A model generated the notes under the pieces. It ran no database searches and had not been told where the DNA came from. It was given only the letters and a program-made list of their open reading frames with translations. A DNA stretch of 64,000 bases. Source: an uncultured Gammaproteobacteria bacterium. GTDB lineage: Bacteria; Patescibacteriota; Patescibacteriia; Magasanikbacterales; GWA2-37-8. This document shows, piece by piece, positions 9,643 to 51,321 of this stretch (positions are counted from its first letter, which is position 1; each line of letters opens with the position of its first letter). Location of the stretch: assembly GCA_964407865.1 (NCBI GenBank), contig CAYOXC010000001.1:109642-173641 (forward strand), written 5' to 3'. The position numbers and the translations under genes are program-made.

Positions 9643-10671
9643 ATGAAGAAAGCGTTGATTACAGGTATTACAGGTCAGGATGGCTCGTATCTAACCGAAT
9701 TGTTATTGGAAAAGGGGTACGAAGTGCACGGTGTTATTCGTCGTTCTAGTAGTTTTAATACAGGGCGGATCGATCATTTATATAAAGATCCACAAATTCA
9801 GGGAGTGAAGTTGTTTTTACATTATGGTGATTTAACTGACGGCAGTAATATTTCTCGTATCTTGGAAAAAGTTCAGCCGAATGAGATTTATAATTTGGGA
9901 GCGCAAAGCCATGTCAAAGTAAGTTTTGAGATGCCGGTATATACCGGAAACACTGTAGGGTTAGGGTCGCTGAGGCTTTTAGACACGATAAAAGAATCTG
10001 GTTTAAAAACAAAATTTTATCAAGCTGGTTCTTCGGAGATGTTTGGTAAGGTGCGAGAAACTCCGCAAAAAGAAACAACACCTTTTTATCCGCGATCGCC
10101 CTATGCTTGTGCCAAGGTATATGCATATTATATTTCTCAAAATTATCGCGAGGCGTATAACATGTACATTTGCAATGGTATTCTTTTTAACCACGAATCA
10201 CCGCGACGTGGTGGTACTTTTGTAACAAAAAAAATAACGCATGCTTTATCTAAAATAAAGGCCGGTAAACAAGAAAAATTATATCTGGGTAATTTAGAGG
10301 CTAAACGCGACTGGGGCTATGCAAAGGATTATGTTGAAGCGATGTGGCTTATGCTTCAGCAAGATAAGCCTGATGACTATGTTGTTGCTACCGGCGAAAC
10401 GCATTCGGTCCGTGAATTTGTTGAAGAAGCAGGAAAATATTTTGATTTTAATATTGAGTGGCAGAGGAATGGTCTTGATGAAAAAGGTATTGACCAAAAA
10501 ACCGGGAAAACAATTATCGAAATTGATCAGAAGTATTTCAGGCCGGCGGAAGTAGACGTATTACTCGGCAATGCGTCAAAAGCGAAACAGATTTTAGGCT
10601 GGGAGCCGAAAGTTAAGTTTAATGATTTAGTAAAAATAATGTGTGAAGCAGAGTATGGAGAAAAACGCTAA
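9643..10671 (+). CDS. gmd: GDP-mannose 4,6-dehydratase.
   Basis: [30 protein letters not shown]..., and the YxxxK / NHESPRRG motifs are typical of Gmd. Confidence 0.9.
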
Positions 10672-11632
10672 AATTTATATTGCTGGACATAGGGGTTTGG
10701 TTGGTTCTGCGTTGATACGTAAATTGGAAGGTGAAGGCTATGCAAATTTAATTTATCGCACACACAAAGAACTTGATTTAACCAATCAACAAGCTGTGGC
10801 TGATTTTTTTTCTGAAGAAAAACCAGAATATGTATTTCTGGCAGCAGCAAAAGTTGGTGGTATTATGGCAAATAATACTTATCCAGCCGAATTTATTTAT
10901 GAAAATTTACAAATACAAAATAATATTATTCACCAATCATATATCAACGGCATCAAAAAACTATTATTTTTAGGATCTTCATGTATATATCCTCGGGAGT
11001 GTCCTCAGCCGATTAAAGAAGAGTATTTGATGTCCGGCAAGTTAGAGCCGACGAATGAAGGATATGCCATGGCTAAAATTGCTGGAATTAAGATGTGTCA
11101 GCATTATAACCGTCAGTATGGAACAAATTTCATCGCAGTTATGCCGACAAATTTGTATGGACCAGGTGATAATTTTGATCCGGTAAATTGTCATGTTATT
11201 CCGGCTCTTATAAAAAAATTTCATGACGCGAAGGTATTAAGCCAAGAATCCCTGAGTGTCTGGGGTACAGGTTCAGCGCGCCGGGAGTTCTTGTTTGTCG
11301 ATGATATGGTTAACGGTTGCCTATATTTAATGAAAAAATTTAGTCCAAACAAAGCTCAGAATGAGTCTGGTGAAATATTTTTTAATCTTGGTACTGGCAT
11401 TGATTTATCTATTCACGAATTAGCTGAATTGATTAAACAGATTGTTGGTTTTAAAGGTAGTATTTACTGGGATTCATCAAAACCTGACGGAATGCCTCAA
11501 AAATTGCTCGATGTGAAGCGTATAAATAATTTTGGATGGAGTTTTAAAACAAATTTTGAAGATGGTTTAAGGTTAACATACAATTGGTATTTAATGGAAT
11601 ATGTTAATAACGATCCTATTACTACCATATGA
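10655..11632 (+). CDS. fcl: GDP-L-fucose synthase-type bifunctional epimerase/reductase (Fcl/WcaG). It could equally be a ColC-type GDP-colitose synthase. It overlaps gmd by 17 nt.
   Basis: [14 protein letters not shown]...LAAAKVGGI...SSCIYP...YAMAKIAG match the Fcl family. Confidence 0.8.
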
Positions 11633-12801
11633 TTAAGTTAATGAAAAATAGTTTTTATAAGGAAGCTGAGACCAAAGAAAAATTGGCGGATTTTATTCTT
11701 AAGACCGACCGGTTTAGCATGGGAGAACAATGCTCTTTATTTGAAAAAAACTTTGCAGAGAAGCAGGGCCGCCGTTATGCGGTTTTTGTATCGAGTGGGA
11801 GTGCTGCCAATTTGATTTTGATTCAATCACTACTAAATTTGGATCGGTTGAAGCGTAATGATTTGGTAGCAGTTTCGTCGGTAACTTGGCCGACGAATAT
11901 TATGCCACTGATACAGCTGGGTTTAAGGCCGTCGGTTTGCGATTGCGAATTAACGAATTTGAATGTTTCCTCCGAAGAACTGAAAAAAAATTTCAGCCGA
12001 GCAAAATATTCTGCGGTTTTTTTGACTAATGTGCTTGGTTTTTCCGCCGATATATCTATGGTGGTAGAATTCTGTCGCTCAAACAATATTATTCTAATTG
12101 AGGACAACTGTGAATCTCTCGGATCACGTATTGAAGGAAAATTGTTGGGAAATTTTGGTTTAGCCTCGACCTTTTCAACTTTCGTTGGGCACCACTTATC
12201 GACAATTGAAGGTGGAGTAATTTGTACCGATGATTTAGAATTATATGAGATGCTTCTTTGTGTTCGTGCTCATGGCTGGGACCGTAATTTACCGATTGCC
12301 AGCTCCCACAAGTATCGAAAAAAATACAATGTGTTTGATGATTTTTTTGCCTGGTATACCTTTTACGACTTAGCTTATAATGTACGTCCTAACGAGATCA
12401 ACGGATTTATTGGCCTCGAACAATTAAAATTTTGGGACGAAATTATCGGACGTCGAAATATGAATTTTAAGAAATTTCACGACGCGACTCTAACAAATCC
12501 TAGCATAGTTCATTTGGATTTGGAACATATGGATTTTGTTTCTAATTTTGCAATGCCGTTAGTCTTTCACAATAAAACAGAGTACGAAAAGCATAAATTG
12601 CGTTTTCAAAATAGTAGTGTGGAAATTCGCCCAGTAATTGCCGGCAACATTATGCGCCAACCTTGTTTCAAAAAATATATTCAATCAGAATATGTATTCC
12701 CGAATGCCGACCAGATACATTATCAGGGTTTTTATTTCGGCAACAATCCTGAACTTTCGGAAAAAGAAGTTGATGTATTATGTAATTTAGTTGCCGGATA
12801 G
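11629..12801 (+). CDS. PLP-dependent sugar 3-dehydratase of the DegT family, most like ColD (GDP-4-keto-6-deoxy-D-mannose 3-dehydratase).
   Basis: YAVFVSSGSAANLI, IEDNCESLG, and FSTFVGHHLSTIEGG. The last has His-His at the position where aminotransferases carry the PLP-binding Lys, exactly as in E. coli ColD (FSSFYSHHIATMEGG). RAHGWDRNLP is also ColD-like. Confidence 0.75.
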   Translation: MIKLMKNSFYKEAETKEKLADFILKTDRFSMGEQCSLFEKNFAEKQGRRYAVFVSSGSAANLILIQSLLNLDRLKRNDLVAVSSVTWPTNIMPLIQLGLRPSVCDCELTNLNVSSEELKKNFSRAKYSAVFLTNVLGFSADISMVVEFCRSNNIILIEDNCESLGSRIEGKLLGNFGLASTFSTFVGHHLSTIEGGVICTDDLELYEMLLCVRAHGWDRNLPIASSHKYRKKYNVFDDFFAWYTFYDLAYNVRPNEINGFIGLEQLKFWDEIIGRRNMNFKKFHDATLTNPSIVHLDLEHMDFVSNFAMPLVFHNKTEYEKHKLRFQNSSVEIRPVIAGNIMRQPCFKKYIQSEYVFPNADQIHYQGFYFGNNPELSEKEVDVLCNLVAG

Positions 12802-14479: not shown

Positions 14480-15787
14480 ATGATGACGGTGCAATCATTA
14501 ATTGGGAAATATTTTCATTTCGATGAAGGTTTTAGGAGATATTTTTGGCACACTTCATGGAACTTGATAGGAAAGATTTTTTCGTTAATTTCTGGTCTTG
14601 TCGTGACCGTTGTGGTTATTCGTTATCTTGGACCGGAAAATAACGGTAAACTTGTATATGCCGCAACTATTGTAAATCTAATTTCTTTCGCAGCTAGTTT
14701 GGGAATTGATAGTTTGTTGTACCGCGATCTGATCAGTAGGCCGGATGATCGAGACAAATTGCTGGGTACAGCGTTTGTTGTAAAATCTGCCGGTGCGTTT
14801 ATATCTTTAGCCATATTATTACTGGTGTTATTTTTCTTGCGAAACGATCCATTCATGAATATATTGATATTGTTTAATGCAGCTCCACTTTTATTTAACG
14901 GATTCAATGTAATAAATTATTTTTTTCAGGCAAAAGTTTTATCTAAAGTAATTACGATAAATTACTTGGCAGTTACCTGTGTCATACTTAGTTCAAAATT
15001 GTTGTTTGTATGGTTGGGGAAAGGCCTTCTTTGGTTCGCTGCACTTGTATTATTCGAGACAATATTAATAACTCTCGGCTATATTATCGTATACAAAAGG
15101 GCGAAATTAAATCTGCGATGCTGGAGTTTTGATAGGCCATTAGCCTTCAACCTCCTTAAATATTCGTGGCCTTTAATTCTATCCACTGCGTTTACAATAA
15201 TTTATTCTCGCATCGACCAGGTCATGATACGTCATATGCTCGGTCTAGCAAGTGTAGGAGTGTATGATGTGGCCGTACGCTTATCCGAAGTGTGGTATTT
15301 TTTCCCAGCTATTATCGTTGGTTCGCTGTTTCCGGCTATCATGAATTCTAAAAAGCACAGTGAGACCATGTATCACCAACGGCTGTCGCGACTGTATTCG
15401 TTAATAATAGCTATTTCATTTATTGTGATAATTCCTATTTCATTGTTTTCCAAGTTAATTATCAGTCTTCTGTTTGGAACCGCTTTTGCCGCTGCGGCAC
15501 CTGTATTGTCTATCTATGCTTGGTCGGGGTTGTCCATTGCTATGGCGACAGTGGTCAATCAATATTTACTAGCCGAGAATTATGTCAGGATATTATTTTT
15601 TTTAAATTTAATCAGCATGTTAGCGAATGTCATTTTGAATATTTGGCTGATACCAAAGTACGGCATTGTTGGTGCGGCGTATGCCACACTAATTTCTTAC
15701 TGGTTATCCGTGCTGGGCGTTATCTTTTTTAAAAAAACGCGTAATCACGTAGGTCTAATATTTAAAAGTTTATTTTTTAAATATTAA
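14480..15787 (+). CDS. Wzx-type oligosaccharide flippase (MOP superfamily polysaccharide biosynthesis protein).
   Basis: About 12 transmembrane helices and N-terminal RYLGPENNG.L in typical Wzx/RfbX style. Confidence 0.75.
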   Translation: MMTVQSLIGKYFHFDEGFRRYFWHTSWNLIGKIFSLISGLVVTVVVIRYLGPENNGKLVYAATIVNLISFAASLGIDSLLYRDLISRPDDRDKLLGTAFVVKSAGAFISLAILLLVLFFLRNDPFMNILILFNAAPLLFNGFNVINYFFQAKVLSKVITINYLAVTCVILSSKLLFVWLGKGLLWFAALVLFETILITLGYIIVYKRAKLNLRCWSFDRPLAFNLLKYSWPLILSTAFTIIYSRIDQVMIRHMLGLASVGVYDVAVRLSEVWYFFPAIIVGSLFPAIMNSKKHSETMYHQRLSRLYSLIIAISFIVIIPISLFSKLIISLLFGTAFAAAAPVLSIYAWSGLSIAMATVVNQYLLAENYVRILFFLNLISMLANVILNIWLIPKYGIVGAAYATLISYWLSVLGVIFFKKTRNHVGLIFKSLFFKY

Positions 15788-15790
15788 ATT

Positions 15791-16702
15791 ATGATCGATA
15801 AAGCAATTATTACATCCTGCTCAAATAAATTTTTTCCTTCTGTTTTAAATTTGATTGGGTCGTTAAAACAAATATATCCTGAGCATCCGATAATATATGT
15901 TTATGATCTGGGGTTGTTGTCACCGTTAAAAATGATTCTGAAACGTATAGATCGTGTAAAGGTGCTGCCGATGCCGCATTTCGTCGAATTTTGGCGATCA
16001 TGTTACACCTGGAAAACATATATTTTGGCGAACCCTCTTGCTGAACTGAATTTTTATATTGATGCTGGAAGCGAAGTCTACGATTCCCTCGACGAAATAT
16101 TTTTACAAATTGAAAAAGTAGGATATTATGCAGTAGAACAAAAGGTGCCACTGAATCTGATTGTTCCAAGTGATTATCGAAGCCTTATATCACTGGATCC
16201 GAAATATTATCAGGAAAATTGTCTAACTGCCGGAATCGTTGGTTTCAGAAGGGATTCCGAAGTTTCACCGGTATTATCTAAGTTGCATGACATGTCAATT
16301 GCCGGCATGTGTTTGGGTTTTTCCAAAGTAGACGCCAATCGCAATCGCGGAGTTGATAAAAGTGAATTCGTCCGCGATTGCCAGATTTTTCGTCACGATA
16401 CGACTTTATGGAGCATGTTGTTTCGTTCAGTTTTCGGCGACCGTCTTGTTGCTAAAGTTGATAAAACTGGAGAGTGTGTTTTTTCTTTGAGTGATGGTCG
16501 TAGGTTAATTCGAAACTTTAGACGTAATTATGTAAATTTAACATACGTTAGAAGTGATAATTGGAATAGTGGCCATCGTAGTCTATTATGGTTATTGACG
16601 GATCTGTGTGTGCAGATTTATATATATTTAAAACGTATGAATTTATGCGTTAAAAGATCTATCGGCTTTAAGGGTGTTTATAAAAAATATGAAGAAAATT
16701 AA
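15791..16702 (+). CDS. Hypothetical protein, possibly a GT-A-fold nucleotide-diphospho-sugar transferase.
   Basis: The only support is its position in the glycan locus and weak N-terminal similarity to nucleotide-sugar transferase folds (AIITSCSNKFFPSVLNLIGSL). There are no firm motifs. Confidence 0.4.
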   Translation: MIDKAIITSCSNKFFPSVLNLIGSLKQIYPEHPIIYVYDLGLLSPLKMILKRIDRVKVLPMPHFVEFWRSCYTWKTYILANPLAELNFYIDAGSEVYDSLDEIFLQIEKVGYYAVEQKVPLNLIVPSDYRSLISLDPKYYQENCLTAGIVGFRRDSEVSPVLSKLHDMSIAGMCLGFSKVDANRNRGVDKSEFVRDCQIFRHDTTLWSMLFRSVFGDRLVAKVDKTGECVFSLSDGRRLIRNFRRNYVNLTYVRSDNWNSGHRSLLWLLTDLCVQIYIYLKRMNLCVKRSIGFKGVYKKYEEN

Positions 16703-17537
16703 AAAATACACTCCTTCTATAGTGCTCAATGTAGCACGTAGGCTTCGGTCGAGTTGGTTTAATTTTTGTGATAGTTTTAAACCCTATCTCAATAAGATTA
16801 AATATTTAGGCTTTGATGTATATTATGCGCGCGGTGAAGGGTTGATTAATCGCATTCGTGTTGGTGCGACGGACAGGGTGTATGAAAGAGATCTGGTCGA
16901 AGCGATCGTACATGAACTTACTGATAAATCTGGAGAAAGCATGATAGATATCGGTGCAAATATTGGCTTGATCAGTTTGGCGGTTTTCAGATCAGTTCCA
17001 ACTGTCAATATATTTGCCTTCGAGCCCGGCCCGCACCAGCATGATTTATTAGCTACAACTATTTTGGCTAACCAGCTTAATGAATCGATTGTATTATCAG
17101 GTAAGGCTGTGAGTGATTTGGTTGGAGAGGCACCATTTCATGTTCATGATTATGTGAATTCTTCAGGTGACGGTCTTGTAGATACTGGACGAGCTGGAAA
17201 ATCGCAGATCGTTTTAGTTGAGACAGTAACTCTAGATACGTGGTGGAACAAAAATAACCGTCCGCATATTTCGGTTGTTAAGATTGACATTGAAGGTGGA
17301 GAGTTGTTGGCCTTGCGAGGTGCTCATGAATTTATTTCAAATGTAAGACCAGTCATATTCACTGAAATTTCTGCTGTAAATATTGCTGCCTATAATTACA
17401 TGCCACAAGATTATTTAGATTATTTTGTAAATAATAATTATGAACTTACAACACTAAGTGGCAAGAGGTGTAACCATGATAATTTTAATACCTTAATCGA
17501 AGAGACAGATATTTTTGTTGCAAAACCTTGTTTATGA
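16674..17537 (+). CDS. FkbM-family SAM-dependent methyltransferase.
   Basis: MIDIGANIGLISL...AFEPGP, and VKIDIEGGELLALRGA at the C-terminus. Confidence 0.75.
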   Translation: MFIKNMKKIKKYTPSIVLNVARRLRSSWFNFCDSFKPYLNKIKYLGFDVYYARGEGLINRIRVGATDRVYERDLVEAIVHELTDKSGESMIDIGANIGLISLAVFRSVPTVNIFAFEPGPHQHDLLATTILANQLNESIVLSGKAVSDLVGEAPFHVHDYVNSSGDGLVDTGRAGKSQIVLVETVTLDTWWNKNNRPHISVVKIDIEGGELLALRGAHEFISNVRPVIFTEISAVNIAAYNYMPQDYLDYFVNNNYELTTLSGKRCNHDNFNTLIEETDIFVAKPCL

Positions 17538-18307
17538 TCAGCCTAATTACATCGTTATATAGATCTGAGTGCCATCTGCAGAAGTATATATGCTCAGTAG
17601 AGAAATTTTATTGTGAAGCCGAAGGTATTTTTCAATTTGAGCTTTTAATTATCGCGAATGATCCGACTCAAGCAGAAGAAGAAAAATTATCAATTTTAGA
17701 GAAAATGAAAAATGTGCGGATAATACGAGTGCCCCAGGAATCGCTGTATGCTTCGTGGAATCGTGGAGTTTGTAACGCGCGCTATGACATTGTCGGATTT
17801 TGGAATGTAGACGACGTACGGTTTGCGTGTGGAATTGAAGCTGGATTGCGCGATTTAAGCGATGGTTCGCCGATGGTCTATTTTCCGTTCATTTATAAAC
17901 GGTATGTAAAAATATTTGGCTATAACTTTTTAGTAAAAATAAAGAAAATTAATCCTCCAGCATTTACAGAAAATGAGTTTGTAAGATCGATGCATTGTGG
18001 TCCGTTTTTTATTTTCAAAAAGGATTTTTACGAAAAAGTTGGGCCTTTTGATGAACAATTTAAAATTGTTGGTGATTTTGAATGGTGCGTTCGTGCCGCC
18101 AAATCCGGCCGATTGAAGAGAGTTGATTGCGTTGCTGGTGTTTTTTACAATTACGGAACAAGCCTAAGCGGCTCAAAAGACTGCAGACATATTGCAGAAA
18201 ATAATATTGTTGCCGCACGTCATGGTGTATTGGATAAGATTATGCCGATTCAAGATAACTTTGAAAATGATTACGAAATAAATAAAATAATATCTAAATT
18301 TAAATAA
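17528..18307 (+). CDS. GT2-like glycosyltransferase (GT-A fold).
   Basis: Size and motifs SWNRG...NVDDV plus an acidic motif (GDFEW). This is a weak call. Confidence 0.5.
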   Translation: MFMISLITSLYRSECHLQKYICSVEKFYCEAEGIFQFELLIIANDPTQAEEEKLSILEKMKNVRIIRVPQESLYASWNRGVCNARYDIVGFWNVDDVRFACGIEAGLRDLSDGSPMVYFPFIYKRYVKIFGYNFLVKIKKINPPAFTENEFVRSMHCGPFFIFKKDFYEKVGPFDEQFKIVGDFEWCVRAAKSGRLKRVDCVAGVFYNYGTSLSGSKDCRHIAENNIVAARHGVLDKIMPIQDNFENDYEINKIISKFK

Positions 18308-18312
18308 TTAAT

Positions 18313-19344
18313 ATGAAATTCGACGAGTATAATTCTAACCAAGAATCTTCATTTACTTCAACCGGTGAAAAACTACTGTTCCACCCTAGTGCTGTTAACG
18401 ATCTTAAAGCTAAAAAAAATCACCCTATTGTTCTGCATATAATGCCAACCGAAGTATGTAATTTACGATGTGTGTTCTGTTCGGTAGCGCAAAGAGGTGA
18501 GAATGGTCGGCTTTGTCCGAATTTAACAATGGATCAAATTCGACACGTTGTTGAGGAATTAAAAAGTAGGGGATTGAAAGCTATAATTATTAGTGGAGGC
18601 GGTGAACCACTCATGTATCCCAAAATCAATGAATTGATTGAATATCTTTATAACGAAGGGTTGCAAGTTGGTGTAATTACAAACGGCATATTACTTAGCA
18701 CACATTTAAGGCAGGAAATCTTAGATAAACTAACCTGGATAAGGATTTCGATTAATTCTATGGATTATGTTGAGAAGATTACTATCCCTAAACTAAACGG
18801 AGAAATTACTACATTAGGTTTTAGTTATATATGGAATAATTTGACTAATGATAAGGTTTTAGCACGAATTAAGTCATTTGTTGATGAAGTCGATAAAGTG
18901 AATAAGATAGAATACGTTAGATTGTTGCCAGATTGTAATTTAGAAACATCCATGCTGGAAGCGGAGCATGTAAAATTGCGCCGTATGGCAGAAAAACTCG
19001 GAGCGCCATTTTTTCATCAGTACAAAATACATGAACAGCCGCCCGAATGCCATCTCGGCCGGGTGCATCCGGTGCTTTACACTGATGGTTATATTTATCC
19101 TTGCGACTCTTTAGTATTGAATTCTCCAATGGACGATAAAAAGTTTCATCGCGAATATTCGTTGTGTCGTTGGGATGATGTTGCAAGTTTTTATGACGAA
19201 CCAATTTGTGGTTCACTCTTGGACACAAAAAAATGTCCTCATTGCGTTTTTGCTCGACAGAATAAACTAATTACAAAAATATTAAACAGCGCTGAATTTT
19301 CCATGGAAGCAAAAGACGATATTAAACATGTTAATTTTATTTAA
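18313..19344 (+). CDS. Radical SAM enzyme with a C-terminal Cys-rich (SPASM/twitch-like) region.
   Basis: CNLRCVFCS (CxxxCxxC) and the GGGEPLMYP SAM-binding motif. C-terminal cysteines sit in CHLG...YPCDS...ICGS...CPHC. Confidence 0.8.
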   Translation: MKFDEYNSNQESSFTSTGEKLLFHPSAVNDLKAKKNHPIVLHIMPTEVCNLRCVFCSVAQRGENGRLCPNLTMDQIRHVVEELKSRGLKAIIISGGGEPLMYPKINELIEYLYNEGLQVGVITNGILLSTHLRQEILDKLTWIRISINSMDYVEKITIPKLNGEITTLGFSYIWNNLTNDKVLARIKSFVDEVDKVNKIEYVRLLPDCNLETSMLEAEHVKLRRMAEKLGAPFFHQYKIHEQPPECHLGRVHPVLYTDGYIYPCDSLVLNSPMDDKKFHREYSLCRWDDVASFYDEPICGSLLDTKKCPHCVFARQNKLITKILNSAEFSMEAKDDIKHVNFI

Positions 19345-19346
19345 GT

Positions 19347-19985
19347 ATGCCTAATGCATTAGATTACGACAAAGATTATTTCGAGAATGGTGTAGTAACC
19401 GGCAAGTCGGGTTATTCCAACTATCGTTGGTTGCCTGAATTAACCATTAAACTCGCTTATAATATAATTAAATATTTAGGCATAAAAGAAGAACATACTG
19501 TTCTTGATTATGGGTGCGCCAAGGGCTATTTGGTAAAAGCTTTCCGTATTTTAGATATCAAGGCATATGGAGTCGATATATCTCAGTATGCAATCGACAC
19601 TGCTGATAGTGAAGTAAGGGAATATTGCCGTCTTATTTCCACAAACAATGCACTACCTTTCCAACAAAAATTTGATTGGATAATCACAAAAGATGTAATT
19701 GAACATATGTCCGAAGATACATTGGATGATTTCTTAAAAACATCCCGCATTTCGTCAGCTAGCTCATTTCATGTCGTTCCGCTTGGCACTGGAGATAATC
19801 ATTATGTTGTACCAGCTTATGATTTGGACATAACACACACGCTGGCGAAACCTGAAGATTGGTGGATTAATAAATTTAAGCAAGCCGGTTGGAAATTAAA
19901 ATCTTTTTCATATCACGTACCTGGCGTAAAAGAAAATTGGACATCCCAATACGAAAAGGGAAATGGATTTTTTATTTTAGAGTAG
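19347..19985 (+). CDS. Class I SAM-dependent methyltransferase.
   Basis: VLDYGCAKGYL motif I, and D...ITKDVIEH. Confidence 0.7.
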   Translation: MPNALDYDKDYFENGVVTGKSGYSNYRWLPELTIKLAYNIIKYLGIKEEHTVLDYGCAKGYLVKAFRILDIKAYGVDISQYAIDTADSEVREYCRLISTNNALPFQQKFDWIITKDVIEHMSEDTLDDFLKTSRISSASSFHVVPLGTGDNHYVVPAYDLDITHTLAKPEDWWINKFKQAGWKLKSFSYHVPGVKENWTSQYEKGNGFFILE

Positions 19986-19988
19986 GAC

Positions 19989-20813
19989 ATGTTGCCAACT
20001 ATTACCGCGATTACAATTATATATAATGAGGAAAAACTACTGGACCGCTGTCTTAGTAGTGTTTATGGAGTAGTTGATCAAATAATGGTTTTTCATGATG
20101 GCCCTTGCGGCGATCGTTCCTTGGAGATCGCAAAAAAATATACGGATAAAGTTATTATTTTGGATCATCGTGGTTATATCGAAGCGCATATGGCGGAAGT
20201 TTTATCTCGTGTAAATACTGATTGGGTATTAATTTTAGATGCGGATGAATATTTATCTAAAGATTTGCGGAATGATATAAAAAAACTCGCCGAAGACGAG
20301 CGAGCGGATGGTTACAGCTTTTTAGAGCCGATATACATACCAGACGAAAATCGGTATACCTATGATGTTAAACCGCGGCGCAAGAACGCACTGCTCAGAA
20401 TGAATAAATTTTATTATATCGGATTGATGCATAGCGGTTATATGACATATGGTAATTTGAAATTTACTGATTATATTCTTGAACATAAACCATCATCGTT
20501 TAATTTTACCTTCTCTTCATATTTGAGTAAGTGGCGTCGTTTAGCAAAAATGGATGCAGCAGGAAATTTTAAGTCCTGGTTCGAAATAAAAAATTTTAAT
20601 TACATGGGCCCTGATATTCGTTTAGTTAAAAAGAATGTTTTTAAAAAAAATCACCCACTAATTGCCATTCCGATAGTTTTTTTAACACATTTTTTTCGCT
20701 TACTTGGGTCTGTAAAGTTGTTTTCCCGTGCGGTATATTATTTTGCTTTTTTAGAGGCGCTATATGGTGCAACGGTATGCTATTATCTTTATAAAATCAA
20801 GAAGGATGTTTAA
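19989..20813 (+). CDS. GT2 glycosyltransferase.
   Basis: ITAITIIYNEEKLLDRCLSS...ILDADE (DxD). Confidence 0.75.
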   Translation: MLPTITAITIIYNEEKLLDRCLSSVYGVVDQIMVFHDGPCGDRSLEIAKKYTDKVIILDHRGYIEAHMAEVLSRVNTDWVLILDADEYLSKDLRNDIKKLAEDERADGYSFLEPIYIPDENRYTYDVKPRRKNALLRMNKFYYIGLMHSGYMTYGNLKFTDYILEHKPSSFNFTFSSYLSKWRRLAKMDAAGNFKSWFEIKNFNYMGPDIRLVKKNVFKKNHPLIAIPIVFLTHFFRLLGSVKLFSRAVYYFAFLEALYGATVCYYLYKIKKDV

Positions 20814-20867
20814 TTTTTTCTTACATATTATTTTGTTAATAATTGTGAATATACACTGAGTTTACCT

Positions 20868-22094
20868 ATGAATAAAAAAATTAAAATTGCTTTTATAAAA
20901 GTAAACGGCCTTGCCACAAACGGAACCGAAAAATTTTTACAAATTATATCAGCAAATTTAGCAAAAGATAGATTTGAAGTTGATTATTATTATTGTGACT
21001 CACCTTCGTTTAAGGATTCTAGTGTAAAGCTAACAATGACCACTGATTCTAATAGAGTAAATTATATGACAGAACATGGTGTAAATTTAATTAAATTCCA
21101 TGTTGAGGCTATTGATTTGTCAACCTATACACATGATTGGATAAATACGGATTTCTGGGAAAAATTTGATGAAAATAGATATGATATTATTCAGACCGGT
21201 AGGGCCGGCCATCCGGAATATCCTTTTTACAAGATTAAACATACACCGATTGTGGATTCGTTGCATTTATCTGGAATGGTGGATAATCAGTACAATATTT
21301 CTCGCGTAATGCATATTTGCAAATGGAACGCGGATTTATGGGTAAAAAAAGGCGGAGATAAAAAGCGCATTGAATTAGTTTCTCATCCTATGGATTTAAA
21401 ATATAACGGTGGCGACATGCGTGAACAGTGTGAATTATCTAATAAGTTTGTTTTTGGTTTTCACCAAAGAAAAGAGGATAGTATATTTTCCGAAATTCCC
21501 TTAAAAGCTTATAAGAAAATTGAATTTGATAATAATTTTTTTATACTTTTGGGTGGTAGTAATAAATACCGTAAGCAAGCAAAAGAATTGGGTATAAAAA
21601 ATATTATTTTTTTAGAGCATACAGGTGATATGCAGTTCATATATCGATTTTTAAACACGCTCGATGTTTATGCGCACGGCAGAAAAGATGGCGAAGTGAA
21701 TTCGACAGCCATGGCCGAAGCAATGTATTTTGGACTTCCGATTGTGAGTCATTTATCGGAGATTAATAACGGACACGTTGAGTGTATTGGAAATGCCGGA
21801 AAAGTTGTACAAACAGACGATGAGTATGTTACGGAAATGTTAAAATTACAAAATGAAAAGGTTTATTATGACTATCGCCGTGAAGAGGCAAAAAAAAGAT
21901 TTGCTGAAAAATATGAACTATATGGACAAATTGATCGTATAATTAATATTTATAAAGATGTAATAAAGAATCCATTTCCTCATAAAATACGAAGATTTTT
22001 TTATCACGTTATTAATTATATAATAAAAAGATTAATTGTTAATAAGTTCACTTATCTTAGTTTAAGAAAAATGCAACAAATAATAAATAGATAA
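20868..22094 (+). CDS. GT4-type (GT-B fold) glycosyltransferase.
   Basis: The C-terminal domain has E-x7-E (EVNSTAMAEAMYFGLPIVS). Confidence 0.65.
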   Translation: MNKKIKIAFIKVNGLATNGTEKFLQIISANLAKDRFEVDYYYCDSPSFKDSSVKLTMTTDSNRVNYMTEHGVNLIKFHVEAIDLSTYTHDWINTDFWEKFDENRYDIIQTGRAGHPEYPFYKIKHTPIVDSLHLSGMVDNQYNISRVMHICKWNADLWVKKGGDKKRIELVSHPMDLKYNGGDMREQCELSNKFVFGFHQRKEDSIFSEIPLKAYKKIEFDNNFFILLGGSNKYRKQAKELGIKNIIFLEHTGDMQFIYRFLNTLDVYAHGRKDGEVNSTAMAEAMYFGLPIVSHLSEINNGHVECIGNAGKVVQTDDEYVTEMLKLQNEKVYYDYRREEAKKRFAEKYELYGQIDRIINIYKDVIKNPFPHKIRRFFYHVINYIIKRLIVNKFTYLSLRKMQQIINR

Positions 22095-22095
22095 G

Positions 22096-23025
22096 ATGTC
22101 GTTAATAATACTTACAAAATCGCCGATATTTAGTTTTAAAGATTTGATTAGACAGATTAAATATTTTGTTAAATATGTTTTAGGCCAGAAAAGAGGACCG
22201 GACATTGTGACTAGTAGTTTATTAAATGGTTTGAAAGAATTAAATTACAAATATAAGTACAATATTAATCAAAAGAAAATTTTTATCGAAGACACTATTT
22301 ATGTGAATGACAGTGTAGAGGCATTGAGGTGGGCGATAGAAGCAAAAAAGGAAGGAAAAATTAAAAAATTGATCGTTGGTCCAATAATATCCGTGCTACC
22401 TCACGACCATAACAGTATAATGTTAAATAAAGAAATAGATTTAATTCTGTTTCCCTCAGAATGGACAAAAAATCACTGGCTGTCAACTGAGAAGAGTTTA
22501 GAAAATAAAATCCAAATTTGGCCTGTCGGAGTAACTTTGCCAGTGCTATCAAAGGATGATAGGGATACAGTATTGGTATATTACAAAAAAGTCCCTGGGA
22601 ATTTATTTGAGTTTATAAAGAATTTTCTAAATAGAAGTAATATAAAATTCCACATTATCAATTATGGTTTGTATAGGCAAAAGAGATATTTTTCTTTATT
22701 AAGAAAAGCAAAAGTGATGATATATTTATCCGAGTCAGAAAGCCAAGGTTTGGCAATGTTCGAGGCGTGGTCATATAACGTGCCAACGCTAGTTTGGAAT
22801 CGCGGATATTGGCAGTATGGCAATAATAGATGGGAAGATGATAAAATAAGTTCACCTTATTTAGTAGAGGATTGTGGGCTTTTTTTTAAAAATCAGAATG
22901 ATTTTCCTGAAGTCTTTAATTGTTTTATAAATAAATTGCCATCCTTTTCGCCACGCAATTATATTGCTAATAACTATACTAATAAAAAAATAGCTCAGAA
23001 TTTTTTAGGAATTATAACTGGGTAA
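22096..23025 (+). CDS. Putative GT-B-fold glycosyltransferase.
   Basis: ESQGLAMFEAWSYNVPTLV resembles the GT1/GT4 E-x7-E region. Otherwise it is uncharacterised. Confidence 0.45.
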   Translation: MSLIILTKSPIFSFKDLIRQIKYFVKYVLGQKRGPDIVTSSLLNGLKELNYKYKYNINQKKIFIEDTIYVNDSVEALRWAIEAKKEGKIKKLIVGPIISVLPHDHNSIMLNKEIDLILFPSEWTKNHWLSTEKSLENKIQIWPVGVTLPVLSKDDRDTVLVYYKKVPGNLFEFIKNFLNRSNIKFHIINYGLYRQKRYFSLLRKAKVMIYLSESESQGLAMFEAWSYNVPTLVWNRGYWQYGNNRWEDDKISSPYLVEDCGLFFKNQNDFPEVFNCFINKLPSFSPRNYIANNYTNKKIAQNFLGIITG

Positions 23026-23027
23026 AT

Positions 23028-23729
23028 ATGATTGATAGAATTATTAATATTATAATGACTCCTTTAAGGAAAGCCGCAAATCGTAAATTTTATAAGCAGT
23101 TTATCGGCAAGGGGAAGTTATTTTTTGATATTGGCGCAAATCATGGTGTTCGCACAGCGGTTTTTCGTGATTTAGGATTAAAGGTTATCGCTGTAGAACC
23201 CCAGAGTGCTTGTGTAGAAAAGCTCAAGAAAAAATTTAATTTAGATGGCAATGTAATTATAGTGAATAAAGGCGTTGGTGAAGCCGAAGGTACAAAGAAT
23301 ATTCAGATTTGCTCATCATCAGATACAATTTCAACTTTTTCTGATGAGTGGAAAAATGGTCGTTTTAAAGAATTTAGTTTTGACAGGCAGGAGAAAGTAC
23401 AAATAACAACTCTGGACGAACTTATCGGGGAGTATGGTTTGCCGGATTTTATTAAAATTGATGTTGAAGGTTATGAGATGCAAGTTATTAGTGGTTTAAC
23501 ACAAAAAGTTCCCTGTTTAAATTTTGAATTTTCGAGTGAATTTATTGGAAATACGATTATAAGCCTCGATCGTTTAACTGGTTTAGGTTATGCTTCATTT
23601 AATTTTGTTGAAGGGGAAGATCTAAATTTTAAATTTAATAATTGGCAAACAAAGCCAGAGCTTGTTGATTATTTGCAGATTGCAATTAGCAAAAATCCTG
23701 ATTTGTGGGGTGATATATACGTTAAATAG
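23028..23729 (+). CDS. FkbM-family methyltransferase.
   Basis: FFDIGANHGV...AVEPQ, and FIKIDVEGYEMQVISG. Confidence 0.75.
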   Translation: MIDRIINIIMTPLRKAANRKFYKQFIGKGKLFFDIGANHGVRTAVFRDLGLKVIAVEPQSACVEKLKKKFNLDGNVIIVNKGVGEAEGTKNIQICSSSDTISTFSDEWKNGRFKEFSFDRQEKVQITTLDELIGEYGLPDFIKIDVEGYEMQVISGLTQKVPCLNFEFSSEFIGNTIISLDRLTGLGYASFNFVEGEDLNFKFNNWQTKPELVDYLQIAISKNPDLWGDIYVK

Positions 23730-23738
23730 CACTACACC

Positions 23739-24332
23739 ATGAAACTACATTTAGGTTGCGGCGGTACATACTTGGAGGGATATGTCAATATAGATTTTCC
23801 GCCTGACAAAAAAACAATAATGAATGTTAAAGCCGATATTTATCAGGATATTAGAACATTGAATTACCCTGATAATAGCGTTGATGAAATCCGCAATCAT
23901 CATGTTTTCGAACACTTCAATCGTATTGTCGCCTTGAAGATGCTTCTCCAATGGCGCCGCTGGCTTAGGCCCGGAGGCAGGCTCGTAATTGAAACCCCCG
24001 ATTATTTTTGGTGCAGCTTATTTTTTATTTTTGCTCCACATAAATACAAAATGGAACTTGGACGCCATATTTTTGGCACGCAGGAAGCCGGATGGGCGAA
24101 CCATTTGGATTTTTGGTATAAGAGCAAATTTAAGAAAGTTCTCCGTAAACTTGGTTTTGAATCGTTTAAATTTACACATCCGCTTTATAAAAATCTATTG
24201 CCTAATATTCAGGTTGAGTGCCGAAAGCGCAATAATGAGATTAATGAAGATGTGGTTTTAAAAGAAATTTTATGTTGGTATGTTCTTAAAGCAGAAGATA
24301 AGAAAAAATATTTGGAGAACTGGTTAAATTAA
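23739..24332 (+). CDS. Class I SAM-dependent methyltransferase.
   Basis: KLHLGCGG...LRPGGRLVIETPD. Confidence 0.6.
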   Translation: MKLHLGCGGTYLEGYVNIDFPPDKKTIMNVKADIYQDIRTLNYPDNSVDEIRNHHVFEHFNRIVALKMLLQWRRWLRPGGRLVIETPDYFWCSLFFIFAPHKYKMELGRHIFGTQEAGWANHLDFWYKSKFKKVLRKLGFESFKFTHPLYKNLLPNIQVECRKRNNEINEDVVLKEILCWYVLKAEDKKKYLENWLN

Positions 24333-29920: not shown

Positions 29921-30964
29921 ATGGGCATATTCATTGCTTCAATGACATTGGCTTTTGTCCTGACCCTGGCGGTCAGGTATTTAGCTATCAAAATGAAGGT
30001 TATAGATTTGCCGGACAAAGAACGAAAGTTTCACGATAAACCAACGCCGCTTTTTGGCGGTTTGGCAATTTATATCACTTTCTGGCTGGTTTTAGGCTGG
30101 CTGTTATTTTTTACTGATTTTACTCATAAGCATTTGTCTAACGGAAGTTTGTTAGCAATATTTCTGGGAAGCACAATTTTAATCATTGTCGGATTGCTAG
30201 ATGATAAATATAAAATATCGCCAAAAGCTCGCCTGCTTGTCACAGCCATGGCGGCATTATGTATAATTTTAGGTGGAACTGAATTTTCAGCCGTAACCAA
30301 CCCGTTTGGCGGCACAATACCGTTGGATATTTTGAAAATCGGCAATTTTTTAGTTTTAGCAAATATTGTAATTTTTTTCTGGCTTGTAGGCATGACTTAT
30401 ACTATTAAAATATTAGACGGACTGGACGGACTTGCTGCCGGCATCGCCTTGATTGGATTTCTGATGATATATTTTCTTACGAGAAAAGGAATATTTTACC
30501 AGGCGGACATTTCAACAATCTCGCTAGTTTTAGCCGGCGCTTGTTCTGGTTTTTTAATATTAAATTTTCACAAAGCGGAGATATTTTTGGGAGAGAGCGG
30601 CGGGTTGTTTTTGGGTTTTATTCTCGGCGTATTGGCTATTGTTGCCGGTGGAAAATTTGCCACCGCGCTTTTAGTGCTGGCAGTGCCGATATTAGATTTA
30701 GTCCGTGTTATATATTTAAGAATTAAAATTAAACAGCCTCTATTTCAAGGCGATCGCAGGCATCTTCACTTTGAAATGCTCAATTTGGGGATAGGTCATG
30801 TTCAAGCGGTAGTTTTATTGTATTTGATTGCTTTTAGTTTTGGCATAACAACTCTTTTTTTAAAGAGTTGGGGCAAGCTCATAGTTTTATTTATATTGAC
30901 ATGCGGCATGGTAGCGCTTGGAATTTGGCTCACAAAAAAAGAACAAGTAAGTAAACACGCATGA
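29921..30964 (+). CDS. MraY/WecA-family polyprenyl-phosphate sugar-1-phosphate transferase.
   Basis: About 10 transmembrane helices, with DDKYKISP..., ILDGLDGLAAG and NFHKAEIFLGESGGLFLG motifs of the MraY/WecA family. Confidence 0.75.
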   Translation: MGIFIASMTLAFVLTLAVRYLAIKMKVIDLPDKERKFHDKPTPLFGGLAIYITFWLVLGWLLFFTDFTHKHLSNGSLLAIFLGSTILIIVGLLDDKYKISPKARLLVTAMAALCIILGGTEFSAVTNPFGGTIPLDILKIGNFLVLANIVIFFWLVGMTYTIKILDGLDGLAAGIALIGFLMIYFLTRKGIFYQADISTISLVLAGACSGFLILNFHKAEIFLGESGGLFLGFILGVLAIVAGGKFATALLVLAVPILDLVRVIYLRIKIKQPLFQGDRRHLHFEMLNLGIGHVQAVVLLYLIAFSFGITTLFLKSWGKLIVLFILTCGMVALGIWLTKKEQVSKHA

Positions 30965-35528: not shown

Positions 35529-37697
35529 TTGCTATTTCTGTCAATTATTTGTATAATTATAATAATTTTCAATTATATGTATTCGTATTTATTGCGTTTT
35601 CTTGGGCTTATTGCCACAGTGGTTTTGCTTTATGTCAATGTTGAAGTTTGGCAGTTTAACTGGTTGTCCTGGGTGGTTTTGGTGATATTTTTTTGGTTGG
35701 CCTCTTCCCATTATGAGGGTGTCATTGTTGAGCGTTTCGGGTTTCGTTCGGGTGTTAGATCAAAAATTCTAGGCGCTTTTATATTATTGGTTGTTTTTGG
35801 CTGCCTAACAGGCATGACAATTGTTTTTTGGACGCTAAATCCAGTCTCTATTGCAATTTCATTGATCATAAGTAGTTTTATTGGTGCAACACTGGCACCA
35901 ATAGAACATATTCAGACAAATGCGCCAGTGGTTGAAGAAGTAGATGGCGGAGCGGTATTAGTTGATAAAAAATCGTATTTAGTGTTTTTTTTCGTTTTTG
36001 CTTTTTTTGGTTTTATAACGCTTTTTTTGTCTTCAAACGAGATTCATTTATTTACTCCATGGCAGACAATTCCCGGTTATTATATTTATCTATATTTTCT
36101 TTTACTTCTTTTATCCGGCGGAATTGTCTTTTCGAATTTTCGAGTTTCAATTATTTTAACAGTTTTAGTAGTGCAATTTTTGCTTGCTTTTTCATATTTG
36201 CCCCTGACTCACAAAATATTTTGGGGGGCTGATGGCTGGAGGCACAAAGCAGTAATTGACAGCATTGTTTCTGGTGAATCGATAGTTATAAAGAATTTTT
36301 CTGAAAACGCCGGTTGGGTAGAAAAAATAAATCCTGGTCTTTTTTCATATAGTCAGTTCTGGGGAATTTTGTCTTCAACTTCAATAATTACCGGTCTTGA
36401 TTCGGTATATTCAATTGCTTGGCTTTTGCCGCTTTTAGCCGGTATTTTACTACCGCTTTTGCTCTACGAAATTGGGCGAGCGCTTCAGTGGACCAGGCGA
36501 AGTTCTTTATTTTTAGCCTGGTTTGGGCTGTTTCCATTTGCGCTACAAATGGTCGGCGCGTTTTCCTTGCCTGTGAGCATGGGTTTTTTAGTATTTTTAC
36601 TTTTTTTGTTATTGCTGATCAGGCGTTCACATGAGAAAAAGAGAGGGCAAATAGCTTTGCTTATCGGACTGATTATTTTATCATTTTTTGGCTATGCTCT
36701 CTTTACAATCCTGATGATATTTAGCTTTGCGGCATTAGAATTAATGAATCTTATTAGATTTAAAAAAGAAAAAAATGAAATTTTTTCTGTGGTAATTGTT
36801 TCTTTGTGCGCGTTATTTATTATTCCGGTCATAGAATTGGTTGCCGGTTATTCGCATTTTAACGGCAGTATTAATTATATTAATTCAGCAACACAGGTTA
36901 TCGGGAATTTTTCGGGATATTTTTTGGCAGATGGACCGCGGCCGCATATCATTGATACTGGAAATGTATTTTTTAATCAGATACCTGTCTATGCCTTTGT
37001 TTCAAACAGTCTAACCTCTTGGCGCTGGTGGATTATAGCTTTTATGGTCCTATTTTTTATAGGAGCGATTATCGGCCTACAAAAAATATTTAAACAAGGG
37101 TCTCAATCTGAAAAATTTTTAGCAGCAACTGGGGCGGGTTTATTTATGAGCTACGTATTAACCAGATATTTTTTGACTGGCGAACATATTCTTAGCCGGC
37201 GTCTGGACGCCACCTTGGCGTTTCTGGCCATATTATTTGTCGTCGCCTCAATAAAATACGCCATCAACCACAATAAGTTCGCCGCCATGTTTTTTGTTTT
37301 GATTATTTCAATTGGAGCAACCGCTTCATACTCGCTCGGTCCCTATAGCCAGGCGATGAGCAGTGATGAATATCGTGCCGCTCAATTTATTTGGACAAAT
37401 ATAAAAAATGATAATAATTTTTGCATTGTGGCTGACACGTATCCGCTCCTCGCGCTCGAAGCAATTTCTCACAAAAAAATTATCGGAGGCGGTTTCCCTA
37501 TAAATGAAAATTTTGCCCAGCCAGAATTAGGTGTTTTATTTGAAGAAATGCGGGTTAGCTCAACTCCGGTTTTATGGCAGAAAGCAAGAGATTTAACAGG
37601 GGCTACATATTGTTACTTGATTATACCAGAGCAAAATAATTCATCAGAAAATGTGTCTTTAGGAAGATTCGGCAGTTTTACTGTATATAGAAATTAA
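35529..37697 (+). CDS. Large polytopic membrane protein of unknown function (possibly GT-C-like).
   Basis: At least 14 hydrophobic segments, with a C-terminal ~200-aa soluble region. I recognise no catalytic motif. Confidence 0.5.
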   Translation: MLFLSIICIIIIIFNYMYSYLLRFLGLIATVVLLYVNVEVWQFNWLSWVVLVIFFWLASSHYEGVIVERFGFRSGVRSKILGAFILLVVFGCLTGMTIVFWTLNPVSIAISLIISSFIGATLAPIEHIQTNAPVVEEVDGGAVLVDKKSYLVFFFVFAFFGFITLFLSSNEIHLFTPWQTIPGYYIYLYFLLLLLSGGIVFSNFRVSIILTVLVVQFLLAFSYLPLTHKIFWGADGWRHKAVIDSIVSGESIVIKNFSENAGWVEKINPGLFSYSQFWGILSSTSIITGLDSVYSIAWLLPLLAGILLPLLLYEIGRALQWTRRSSLFLAWFGLFPFALQMVGAFSLPVSMGFLVFLLFLLLLIRRSHEKKRGQIALLIGLIILSFFGYALFTILMIFSFAALELMNLIRFKKEKNEIFSVVIVSLCALFIIPVIELVAGYSHFNGSINYINSATQVIGNFSGYFLADGPRPHIIDTGNVFFNQIPVYAFVSNSLTSWRWWIIAFMVLFFIGAIIGLQKIFKQGSQSEKFLAATGAGLFMSYVLTRYFLTGEHILSRRLDATLAFLAILFVVASIKYAINHNKFAAMFFVLIISIGATASYSLGPYSQAMSSDEYRAAQFIWTNIKNDNNFCIVADTYPLLALEAISHKKIIGGGFPINENFAQPELGVLFEEMRVSSTPVLWQKARDLTGATYCYLIIPEQNNSSENVSLGRFGSFTVYRN

Positions 37698-37713
37698 ATT
37701 TTAAAATTTTAAG

Positions 37714-37737
37714 TACTAATTACAAATTACTAATTAT
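37714..37737 (+). promoter_or_regulatory. Second copy of the TACTAATTAC-type motif, abutting the HIT gene start codon.
   Basis: TACTAATTACAAATTACTAATTAT ends at the ATG at 37738. Confidence 0.4.
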
Positions 37738-38139: not shown

Positions 38140-38171
38140 CCAAAAGGGTTTTTTGGTGTATAATAAGATTC

Positions 38172-48734: not shown

Positions 48735-48764
48735 TTATTTCTGGTAGTTGACATGCCGGGTATG
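48735..48764 (+). promoter_or_regulatory. Third copy (right-arm type only) of the start-codon-embedding motif, at the flippase gene.
   Basis: TTATTTCTGGTAGTTGACATGCCGGGTATG. GGAGAATAG at 48721-48729 and a TTGAAT-N17-TATTAT promoter-like pair at 48677-48705 lie upstream. Confidence 0.5.
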
Positions 48765-51312: not shown

Positions 51313-51321
51313 TTCTTATTT

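Follow-up and report, generated by a model that had tools for sequence, protein, structure and literature searches.

We analyzed a 64,000-nucleotide stretch of DNA (hereafter the window; contig CAYOXC010000001.1 of assembly GCA_964407865.1, positions 109,642 to 173,641 of the forward strand), which is labelled as an uncultured Gammaproteobacteria bacterium and placed by GTDB in the Patescibacteriota (Magasanikbacterales, GWA2-37-8). Three genes at positions 9643-12801 of the window were read in an initial annotation, made from the letters alone, as gmd, an fcl-like gene and a gene for a ColD-like 3-dehydratase, i.e., as a 3,6-dideoxyhexose pathway. Indeed, all three open reading frames (ORFs) are present there on the plus strand (Table 1). 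The first two overlap by 17 nt when the start of fcl is taken to be the ATG at 10655, which agrees with the called gene (P0123) and with the N-termini of homologues and is a more likely start than the GTG at 10643. The stop codon of fcl and the start codon of colD share the letters ATGA, an overlap of 4 nt. For colD, the ATG at 11629 is favored by the conserved N-terminus MIKL(I/M)K, and gene callers use 11641, four codons later; in an exact look-up, this 386-aa called form of the protein (P0001) was found only in two short contigs identical to the window. Scans for tRNAs, Rfam families and promoters or terminators returned nothing useful. We conclude that the three genes form one translationally coupled cassette and stand at the head of a locus for a surface glycan.

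The product of the first gene exceeded the equivalog cut-off of the Gmd model TIGR01472 (577.9 bits versus 415) and matched PF16363 at 2e-152. It is 58-59% identical to Gmd of Escherichia coli O55 and O111, and 73-82% identical to Gmd of syntenic relatives from the Patescibacteria. The third gene encodes a fold-type I enzyme of the DegT/DnrJ/EryC1 family (PF01041, 3.5e-52), i.e., an enzyme dependent on pyridoxal 5'-phosphate (PLP) or pyridoxamine 5'-phosphate (PMP). Among all sequences in the Protein Data Bank (PDB), its best matches were the four entries of E. coli ColD (2gms; E-value 5e-66, residues 18-384 aligned with 19-385), and lower matches were E1 of the CDP-3,6-dideoxyhexose pathway (5.6e-37), a putative NDP-sugar 3-dehydratase (1.2e-26) and aminotransferases with the catalytic lysine (2.5e-20 or worse). 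When the AlphaFold (AF2) model of the protein (predicted local distance difference test, pLDDT, 93.2) was used as a Foldseek query, the top 12 matches were all ColD, with template modeling (TM) scores of 0.87-0.90, followed by E1 (0.83-0.84) and then by aminotransferases.

According to a review (PMC8987622), ColD works with PMP through enamine hydrolysis and regeneration by glutamate, requires no reductase, and has as its hallmark a histidine in place of the Schiff-base lysine. The initial annotation had reported this substitution for the third gene, and we found it borne out: the segment FVGHHLSTIEGG at nucleotides 12181-12216 contains a histidine that is residue 188 of the protein and stands in the same column as ColD His188. 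It is not an alignment artifact, since the column is the one changed in the deposited ColD mutants H188N, H188K and S187N/H188K. The blocks IEDNCESLG and RAHGWDRNLP, also cited as ColD-like, are present and align with the corresponding blocks of ColD. We then compared 203 aligned sequences, which comprise the window protein, 120 database homologues, the proteins from 80 genomic loci and two E. coli ColD. His188 was kept in all of them, as were Ser58, Trp87, Asp159, Glu162, Ser183, Glu332 and Arg334, all shared with E. coli ColD, and the RAHGW-R block including Arg219; Asn251 was kept in 201 of the 203. The active-site roles of residues other than His188 are assigned from this conservation.

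The E. coli ColC and ColD sequences used here were obtained by back-translating the PDB sequence of ColD and searching E. coli genomes with blastn. In a neighbor-joining tree, the clade of the window protein was monophyletic (100 of 100 bootstraps) and sister to ColD of E. coli O55 and O111 (again 100/100), and the E1-type (AHH) and Lys-type paralogues fell outside both. The phylogeny thus groups the protein with ColD and not with Lys-containing aminotransferases. We conclude that the third gene encodes a ColD-type, PMP-dependent GDP-4-keto-6-deoxymannose 3-dehydratase of a divergent clade, an activity that we infer from the active site, the phylogeny, the structural match and the gene context. 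The GC content of colD (0.376) is similar to that of its neighbors, so that a composition test for recent transfer was negative.

For the second gene, the initial annotation had offered Fcl, ColC or both. Its product narrowly missed the cut-off of the GDP-L-fucose synthase model NF047922 (468.2 versus 500 bits), matched E. coli GDP-fucose synthetase (GFS, 1bsv) with an E-value of 1.8e-112 and conserves Ser107, Cys109, Tyr136, Lys140 and His179. These catalytic residues cannot separate Fcl from ColC because ColC, which is 36-39% identical to Fcl, retains the same set. The nearest homologues (67-74% identical) are annotated as GDP-L-fucose synthase, and those with a name are mostly from Magasanikbacteria. 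Judged by homologue names and synteny, the window is part of a Patescibacteria (CPR) chromosome with a probable relationship to Magasanikbacteria. Four relatives (loci L086-L089), whose Fcl is 69-73% identical to that of the window, have the same neighborhood, with the layout Wzy_C-gmd-fcl-HTH_17 followed by variable glycan genes and, in two of them, preceded by MgsA and/or QueH (in L086, MgsA shares 86% identity). No DegT gene was present in these four within the fetched 13 kb. In the loci of the three closest Fcl homologues (L090-L092), which have this neighborhood too, a ColD-type gene lies between gmd and fcl; its product is 57% identical to that of the window and has the motif FSSFVGHH. 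One of them, L091, has most of the head of the window locus in common with it (gmd 81%, fcl 70%, HTH_17 71%, GT2-Methyltransf_24 fusion 64%, orf303 58%, FkbM 58% and radical SAM 74% identity). In a further locus, L006, the order is gmd-fcl-(255-aa ORF)-colD.

An intact ColD therefore lies beside canonical Fcl in five genomes of this lineage (the window, L006 and L090-L092). No second reductase of the Fcl/ColC type was found up to 3 kb from the ColD gene of L006, among the genes called in L090-L092, or anywhere in the window, where the sole other short-chain dehydrogenase/reductase (SDR) is GalE/TviC-like and located beside UDP-glucose dehydrogenase. Since the same canonical Fcl orthologue occurs at one locus with and without ColD, "both" is the most economical answer as to products, namely GDP-fucose and GDP-colitose: a single canonical Fcl probably finishes the former from the Gmd product and the latter from the ColD product. 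A ColC-like protein is disfavored by identity, tree and synteny, all of which point to canonical Fcl. The ColD gene falls in the variable portion of the locus; the head, Wzy_C-gmd-fcl, is conserved in relatives. The ColD of the window and that of its syntenic relatives lie on opposite sides of fcl and formed a joint clade in 0 of 100 bootstraps, which hints at separate acquisition or replacement.

We also considered a sequence rule for distinguishing Fcl from ColC, based on Asn73 (in ANNTYP) together with a long loop. Met, Ile, Leu or Lys was found at this position in 46 of the 47 ColD-adjacent Fcl-like proteins from the 80 loci, mostly with a loop 8 residues shorter; in E. coli ColC, Ile stands at the position of GFS Asn73 and the loop is short. 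We rejected this rule, as the proteins of the window, L006 and L090-L092 keep ANNTYP beside ColD, and PDB entry 8du0, deposited as a GDP-L-fucose synthase, combines Ser with the short loop; lineage thus confounds the pattern. In human GFS, residues 74-82 fold onto the sugar pocket upon GDP binding (PMC12362431); the Asn73 segment corresponds to them if the offset of +7 between E. coli and human catalytic residues holds here.

The closest proteins to the window ColD in a collection of 5.8 billion proteins were 55-64% identical; those with a name come from Patescibacteria groups, and they are annotated as DegT aminotransferase or, by IMG, as CDP-sugar E1 dehydrase. In a scan of one genome per species, 544 genomes had a relative, and all locus counts given here refer to the best 80 of these 544 (50-62% identity, phyla assigned by record title). 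About 50 were Patescibacteria, including the cultured Minisyncoccus archaeiphilus; 8 were Actinomycetota, among them three cultured Streptomyces strains and Luedemannella flava; and 3 were archaea. Cultured actinomycetes with the module include Streptomyces sp. NPDC020192 and NPDC007856 and L. flava JCM 13250. A few other phyla were represented, and 10 metagenome-assembled genomes were labelled as Proteobacteria (Gammaproteobacteria, Pseudomonadales, Burkholderiales), labels that we judged unreliable. The ColD-type gene had gmd within 3 kb in 58 of the 80 loci, an Fcl-type gene (at least 45% identity) in 46 and both in 38. The gene order gmd-colD-fcl was found in 34 loci, and gmd-fcl-colD, the order of the window, in 3. 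This recurrent linkage is the main independent support for the idea that the Gmd product is the substrate of the clade, whose own product goes to an Fcl-type enzyme. Because the clade occurs mostly in Patescibacteria, several close syntenic relatives included, and usually beside gmd and an Fcl-type gene, the remark in the initial annotation that colitose would be unexpected in this lineage was overstated.

We propose, with a probability of about 0.62, that the cassette makes both GDP-L-colitose and GDP-L-fucose for a surface glycan by means of Gmd, the ColD-type enzyme and one canonical Fcl. Gmd, whose homology lies above the curated cut-off, converts GDP-mannose to GDP-4-keto-6-deoxy-D-mannose. 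From this intermediate the ColD-type enzyme would remove the 3-hydroxyl group, with His188 as general base and without an Fe-S cluster or a reductase partner, to give GDP-4-keto-3,6-dideoxy-D-mannose; its PMP would be regenerated from L-glutamate. Canonical Fcl would then epimerize C5 and reduce C4 to yield GDP-L-colitose (3-deoxy-L-fucose), and the same enzyme would turn unprocessed Gmd product into GDP-L-fucose. GT11 and the other transferases of the locus would build an undecaprenyl-linked glycan, which would be flipped by Wzx and ligated or polymerized by Wzy_C proteins.

Several observations weigh against this proposal. With ColD of E. coli O55 and O111 the ColD-like protein shares only 36-37% identity. 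Its clade is a separate one, for which we found no characterized member, and the protein stands outside the tight group of characterized ColD-type enzymes (E. coli, Yersinia and Campylobacter jejuni HS:5/HS:11), which are mutually 62-67% identical (PMC10440746). The GDP-linked 3,6-dideoxyhexose route of the initial annotation is supported by His188, the lack of an Fe-S motif, the phylogeny, the structural match and the gmd linkage, while the activity and the final sugar are predictions made across this low identity. Residue 187 is Gly in the window protein and in 198 of the 203 aligned sequences but Ser in both E. coli ColD; as Ser187 is not conserved among characterized dehydratases (preprint 10.1101/2021.09.04.459008), its absence carries little weight. 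The Fcl-like protein shares 53% identity with E. coli Fcl and 37-38% with ColC of O55 and O111, and in the tree it falls among Fcl sequences, including that of E. coli, with ColC far outside; that such an enzyme accepts the 3-deoxy ketosugar is something we infer. ColD and Fcl would moreover compete for GDP-4-keto-6-deoxymannose. The C3-dehydratase of C. jejuni has a kcat of 0.17 s−1 and a Km of 840 µM (PMC10440746), and the published values for human GFS are 2.1 s−1 and 1.7 µM. These homologue kinetics suggest that Fcl could take most of the shared substrate, and colitose might be a minor component unless expression or enzyme properties differ. In 34 of the 80 loci, no Fcl-type gene (at least 45% identity) was present up to 3 kb from the ColD-type gene; in those that we inspected, the ColD-type gene is followed by an RmlD-like SDR and a GT2 gene, by a split transketolase and an SDR, or by a GtrA-like protein, which means that the clade does not lead to a single end product. 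Finally, there is no manB or manC in the window, and our literature search found no chemical report of colitose in any Patescibacterium, the one paper that named both being unrelated.

Two alternatives concern the third gene itself. Its membership in PF01041 and the NCBI names of its homologues, which extend even to E. coli O55 ColD, would fit a sugar aminotransferase making a GDP-4-amino-4,6-dideoxy sugar such as perosamine. We regard this as very improbable, since the Schiff-base lysine is replaced by histidine in all 203 sequences and the Lys-type paralogues lie outside the clade; in addition, GDP-perosamine synthase matched at about 5e-17 versus 5e-66 for ColD, and no N-acyltransferase typical of amino-sugar routes was found adjoining the gene. 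An E1-type CDP-4-keto-6-deoxyglucose 3-dehydrase (RfbH/DdhC) of the route to abequose, paratose, tyvelose or ascarylose is, in our view, even harder to credit. It is suggested by the best NCBIfam match, RfbH (NF011936, 198.5 bits), by the IMG names of homologues and by the true E1-type paralogues in some related loci (L007, L008), but the score is far under the RfbH cut-off of 423. Cys251, Cys253 and Cys261 of E1, its [2Fe-2S] ligands, align with Arg219, Leu221 and Tyr229 of the window protein, so that the E1 Fe-S cysteines are absent. The E1 numbering used agrees with Asp194, Tyr217 and His220 as quoted in 10.1101/2021.09.04.459008. With 390 aa the protein is also close in length to E. coli ColD (388 aa) and not to E1 (437 aa), and it is coupled to gmd and fcl in a window that contains no CDP-glucose pathway gene and no E3 reductase.

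The other two alternatives concern the product. We consider it unlikely that the cassette is essentially a GDP-L-fucose module, in which the ColD-type enzyme adds little, or its product is minor or a dead end, and the glycan bears fucose in place of colitose. Its canonical Fcl orthologue is indeed common to the gmd-fcl relatives without ColD in the fetched 13 kb, the homologue kinetics favor Fcl over the C3-dehydratase, and the GT11 family consists mainly of fucosyltransferases; however, ColD is intact, has all conserved active-site residues and is translationally coupled to fcl. At least five genomes of the lineage have kept it beside canonical Fcl, and dozens of other species have kept it beside gmd and Fcl-type genes, which would not be expected of a useless gene. 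Less likely again is a functional ColD whose final sugar is not L-colitose but a D-configured 3,6-dideoxyhexose, formed with a 4-reductase encoded elsewhere, or a modified (O- or C-methylated, or branched) 3,6-dideoxy sugar. C. jejuni reaches several stereoisomers by means of a separate epimerase and separate reductases (PMC10440746), and members of the same ColD clade occur with an RmlD-like SDR of 261 aa in L065 (near-identical ORFs are present in L060, L066, L079 and L083) and beside the split transketolase and SDR in L016. Five or more methyltransferase domains and a radical-SAM gene in the window locus would suit a modified sugar, but methylation after transfer would still begin from colitose. 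The only ColD-coupled enzyme in the window is of the Fcl type, which on a 3-deoxy substrate would give the L-xylo (colitose) configuration, and the GalE/TviC-like SDR lies beside UDP-glucose dehydrogenase. We retain the joint production of GDP-L-colitose and GDP-L-fucose as the preferred interpretation.

The colitose pathway of E. coli O55/O111 and Yersinia pseudotuberculosis (Gmd, ColD/WbdK, ColC, WbgN) uses the same three enzyme types as the cassette. With E. coli O55/O111 the window further shares a His188 PMP-dependent dehydratase without an Fe-S cluster, a GT11 gene in the locus, and an Fcl-type gene located directly upstream of colD with a 4-nt overlap (colC-colD in E. coli). It differs in that its ColD forms a separate clade and has Gly187 in place of Ser187, its reductase is canonical Fcl and not ColC, and its cluster lacks manB and manC. 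Patescibacteria are not, to our knowledge, known to make lipopolysaccharide (LPS), and the acceptor of this glycan would thus not be an O-antigen on lipid A. The GDP-3,6-dideoxyheptose pathway of C. jejuni HS:5/HS:11 consists of a 4,6-dehydratase, a PLP-dependent C3-dehydratase, a C5-epimerase and a C4-reductase (PMC10440746). It likewise has a ColD-type C3-dehydratase that acts on a GDP-4-keto-6-deoxy sugar and uses L-glutamate, but its enzymes are 62-67% identical to E. coli ColD, the substrate is a heptose, and epimerase and reductase are separate, whereas the window has a bona fide gmd, a fused Fcl and no heptose genes. The CDP-3,6-dideoxyhexose pathway (E1/RfbH/DdhC and E3) shares a DegT-family 3-dehydrase with His for Lys that leads to a 4-keto-3,6-dideoxy sugar (PMC8987622). 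That system has a [2Fe-2S] cluster, E3 and a CDP-sugar, whereas the protein encoded in the window has none of the Cys ligands and does not reach the RfbH cut-off, and its gene is linked to gmd. Compared with an ordinary Gmd-Fcl fucose module, gmd and fcl of the window are orthologous and syntenic to the pairs in L086-L089; what sets the window apart is the ColD-type gene coupled to the 3' end of fcl, which in L090-L092 stands between gmd and fcl.

The glycan locus headed by the cassette is about 24 kb long and runs to about 31 kb. It contains genes for a Wzy_C/TPR protein, HTH_17, the cassette, a GT2-Methyltransf_24 fusion, Wzx, several GT2 and GT1/GT4 proteins, UDP-glucose dehydrogenase, a GalE-like epimerase and a WecA-like initiator (Table 1); its glycosyltransferases number at least eight, including GT11. 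A GT11 gene that could transfer fucose or colitose had been proposed in the initial annotation. The gene is real, as its product matched PF01531 at 1.2e-36 (127 bits versus a gathering score of 23.9) and is 35% identical (E-value 1.7e-47) to the GT11 protein of the E. coli O55 cluster. The idea of colitose transfer has a precedent in WbgN of E. coli O55, a GT11 α1,2-colitosyltransferase that also accepts GDP-fucose (PMC12723683). We regard the GT11 protein as a candidate transferase for the product of the cassette; its sequence gives no discriminator between fucose and colitose as donor. The GT2-Methyltransf_24 fusion also follows the gmd/fcl/colD module in L047, L067 and L091 (43-64% identity) and corresponds to two split genes in L086, which is without ColD; its substrate may be the sugar that the cassette produces. 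The locus is unusually methylation-rich: it contains two FkbM-type and three other methyltransferase genes and a radical-SAM gene, of which the FkbM-type genes, two class I methyltransferase genes and the radical-SAM gene lie at 16674-24332. The WecA-like protein, which scored 106.5 bits with TIGR02380 (below its cut-off), is the probable initiating enzyme. At the other end of the locus, the Wzy_C protein is 51-62% identical and syntenic in relatives. The small HTH_17 ORF is 52-79% identical in the relatives searched (L006, L086-L089, L091) but its position varies: in the window and L089 it precedes gmd, whereas L006, L086-L088 and L091 have it behind fcl or colD. The ORF apparently marks where the conserved head of the locus gives way to its variable part.

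Table 1 Features of the window discussed in the text
Feature	Position	Strand	Evidence or remark
Wzy_C (O-antigen ligase/polymerase-like) membrane protein with C-terminal TPR; conserved head of locus	7093-9198	+	PF04932 (4.7e-18), TPR families
Small HTH_17 (excisionase/MerR-like) ORF	9320-9601		
gmd, 342 aa	9643-10671	+	TIGR01472, PF16363
fcl-type epimerase/reductase, 325 aa from ATG	10655-11632 (ORF opens with GTG at 10643)	+	NF047922, match to E. coli GFS
ColD-like DegT-family protein, 390 aa	11629-12801	+	PF01041, match to E. coli ColD
His188 codon (catalytic His in place of Schiff-base Lys)	12190-12192	+	Alignment with ColD His188
GT2-Methyltransf_24 fusion, 551 aa	12791-14446	+	PF00535, PF13578; 11-nt overlap with colD stop
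Wzx-type flippase	14480-15787	+	PF01943, PF13440
ORF without family	15791-16702		
FkbM-type methyltransferase	16674-17537		
Radical-SAM gene	18313-19344		Best NCBIfam match viperin-like, weak and sub-threshold
Class I methyltransferase	19347-19985		
ORF without family	22096-23025		
FkbM-type methyltransferase	23028-23729		
Class I methyltransferase	23739-24332		
GT11 alpha-1,2-fucosyl/colitosyl-transferase-like protein, 261 aa	24337-25122	+	PF01531
WecA/MraY-family polyprenyl-phosphate sugar-phosphate transferase; far end of locus	29921-30964	+	PF00953 (9.6e-29)
722-aa ORF	35529-37697		No Pfam match
Small HIT-domain ORF	37738-38139		Between the 722-aa and TrwB/TraG-like ORFs
ORF with TrwB/TraG-like coupling-protein domain	38172-39968		PF10412 (5e-09)

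The chemistry of the pathway and its gene logic are already known, and the ColD clade, though unstudied, is common in the lineage. In a genome survey, the TACK archaea stand out by their lack of L-fucose and L-colitose, which implies predicted L-colitose pathways in other phyla, well beyond enterobacteria (PMC7725333), and ColD and ColC have been annotated in a verrucomicrobial endosymbiont (PMC8204192). The value of our analysis is thus incremental, as the pathway is known and its occurrence beyond enterobacteria had been indicated by the earlier survey. Modestly new are the separate, uncharacterized clade, the canonical Fcl in place of ColC, and the finding that a conserved locus has ColD in some relatives and not in others. 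The 3,6-dideoxyhexoses act as strong antigenic determinants, and the literature that we found places them in Gram-negative O-antigens and related surface polysaccharides; for colitose, the papers listed are largely concerned with Gram-negative LPS. If the prediction is true, these sugars are to be expected more widely, in Patescibacteria, cultured Streptomyces and some archaea, and surface-glycan variation would be a factor in the recognition between episymbiont and host. A broader generalization, which we advance only tentatively, is that a single canonical Fcl serves two pathways in Patescibacteria, that the glycan is switched from fucose- to colitose-bearing according to whether and where ColD stands in the Wzy_C-gmd-fcl locus, and that the clade spreads GDP-3,6-dideoxyhexoses beyond Gram-negative LPS. 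Were this so, the ColD switch would give serotype-like diversity to ultrasmall episymbionts, and GDP-linked 3,6-dideoxyhexoses would be common in settings other than Gram-negative LPS, Actinomycetota and DPANN-type archaea among them.

The clade also poses an annotation problem, since the NCBI name "aminotransferase" and the IMG name "CDP-sugar E1 dehydrase" are both misleading. In RefSeq, the experimentally characterized ColD of E. coli O55 (L003, 8953-10119) and its O111 homologue (L004, 7951-9117) are named "DegT/DnrJ/EryC1/StrS family aminotransferase", and O111 ColC is named only "NAD-dependent epimerase/dehydratase family protein". NCBIfam apparently has no ColD model, the best match being RfbH below its cut-off.

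Some of the related loci differ from the window in their neighboring genes. In the Minisyncoccus archaeiphilus PMX.108 genome (NZ_AP038758.1; L025, 8961-17650), gmd-colD-fcl (8961-12104) stands beside a phosphoenolpyruvate (PEP)-mutase/cytidylyltransferase fusion, together with a thiamine pyrophosphate-dependent decarboxylase and an Fe-alcohol dehydrogenase, which suggests a phosphonate-decorated glycan; the species description makes no mention of fucose, GDP-sugars, polysaccharides or glycosyl-related genes. In another locus from Patescibacteria (L016, 11167-14001), the ColD-type gene is followed by the N and C subunits of the split transketolase and by the SDR, without Fcl, an arrangement that could serve a GDP-linked branched-chain 3,6-dideoxy sugar. 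In two loci, a His-dehydratase paralogue of the E1 type (AHH, 437-438 aa; L007, 5255-6364, and L008, 6303-7391) lies a few kb from the ColD-type gene, which would mean that two different 3-deoxygenation systems are present in one glycan locus.

The rest of the window is occupied by housekeeping genes (ribosomal proteins, RpoA, DnaB, RecR, AlaRS, ClpB). A second, small glycan locus is located at 48753-53407, with genes for a Wzx-like flippase, a GT1 and a GT2 protein on the plus strand and for a Wzy_C protein on the minus strand. The three ORFs at 35529-39968 may be related to the type IV secretion/competence machinery described for Patescibacteria.

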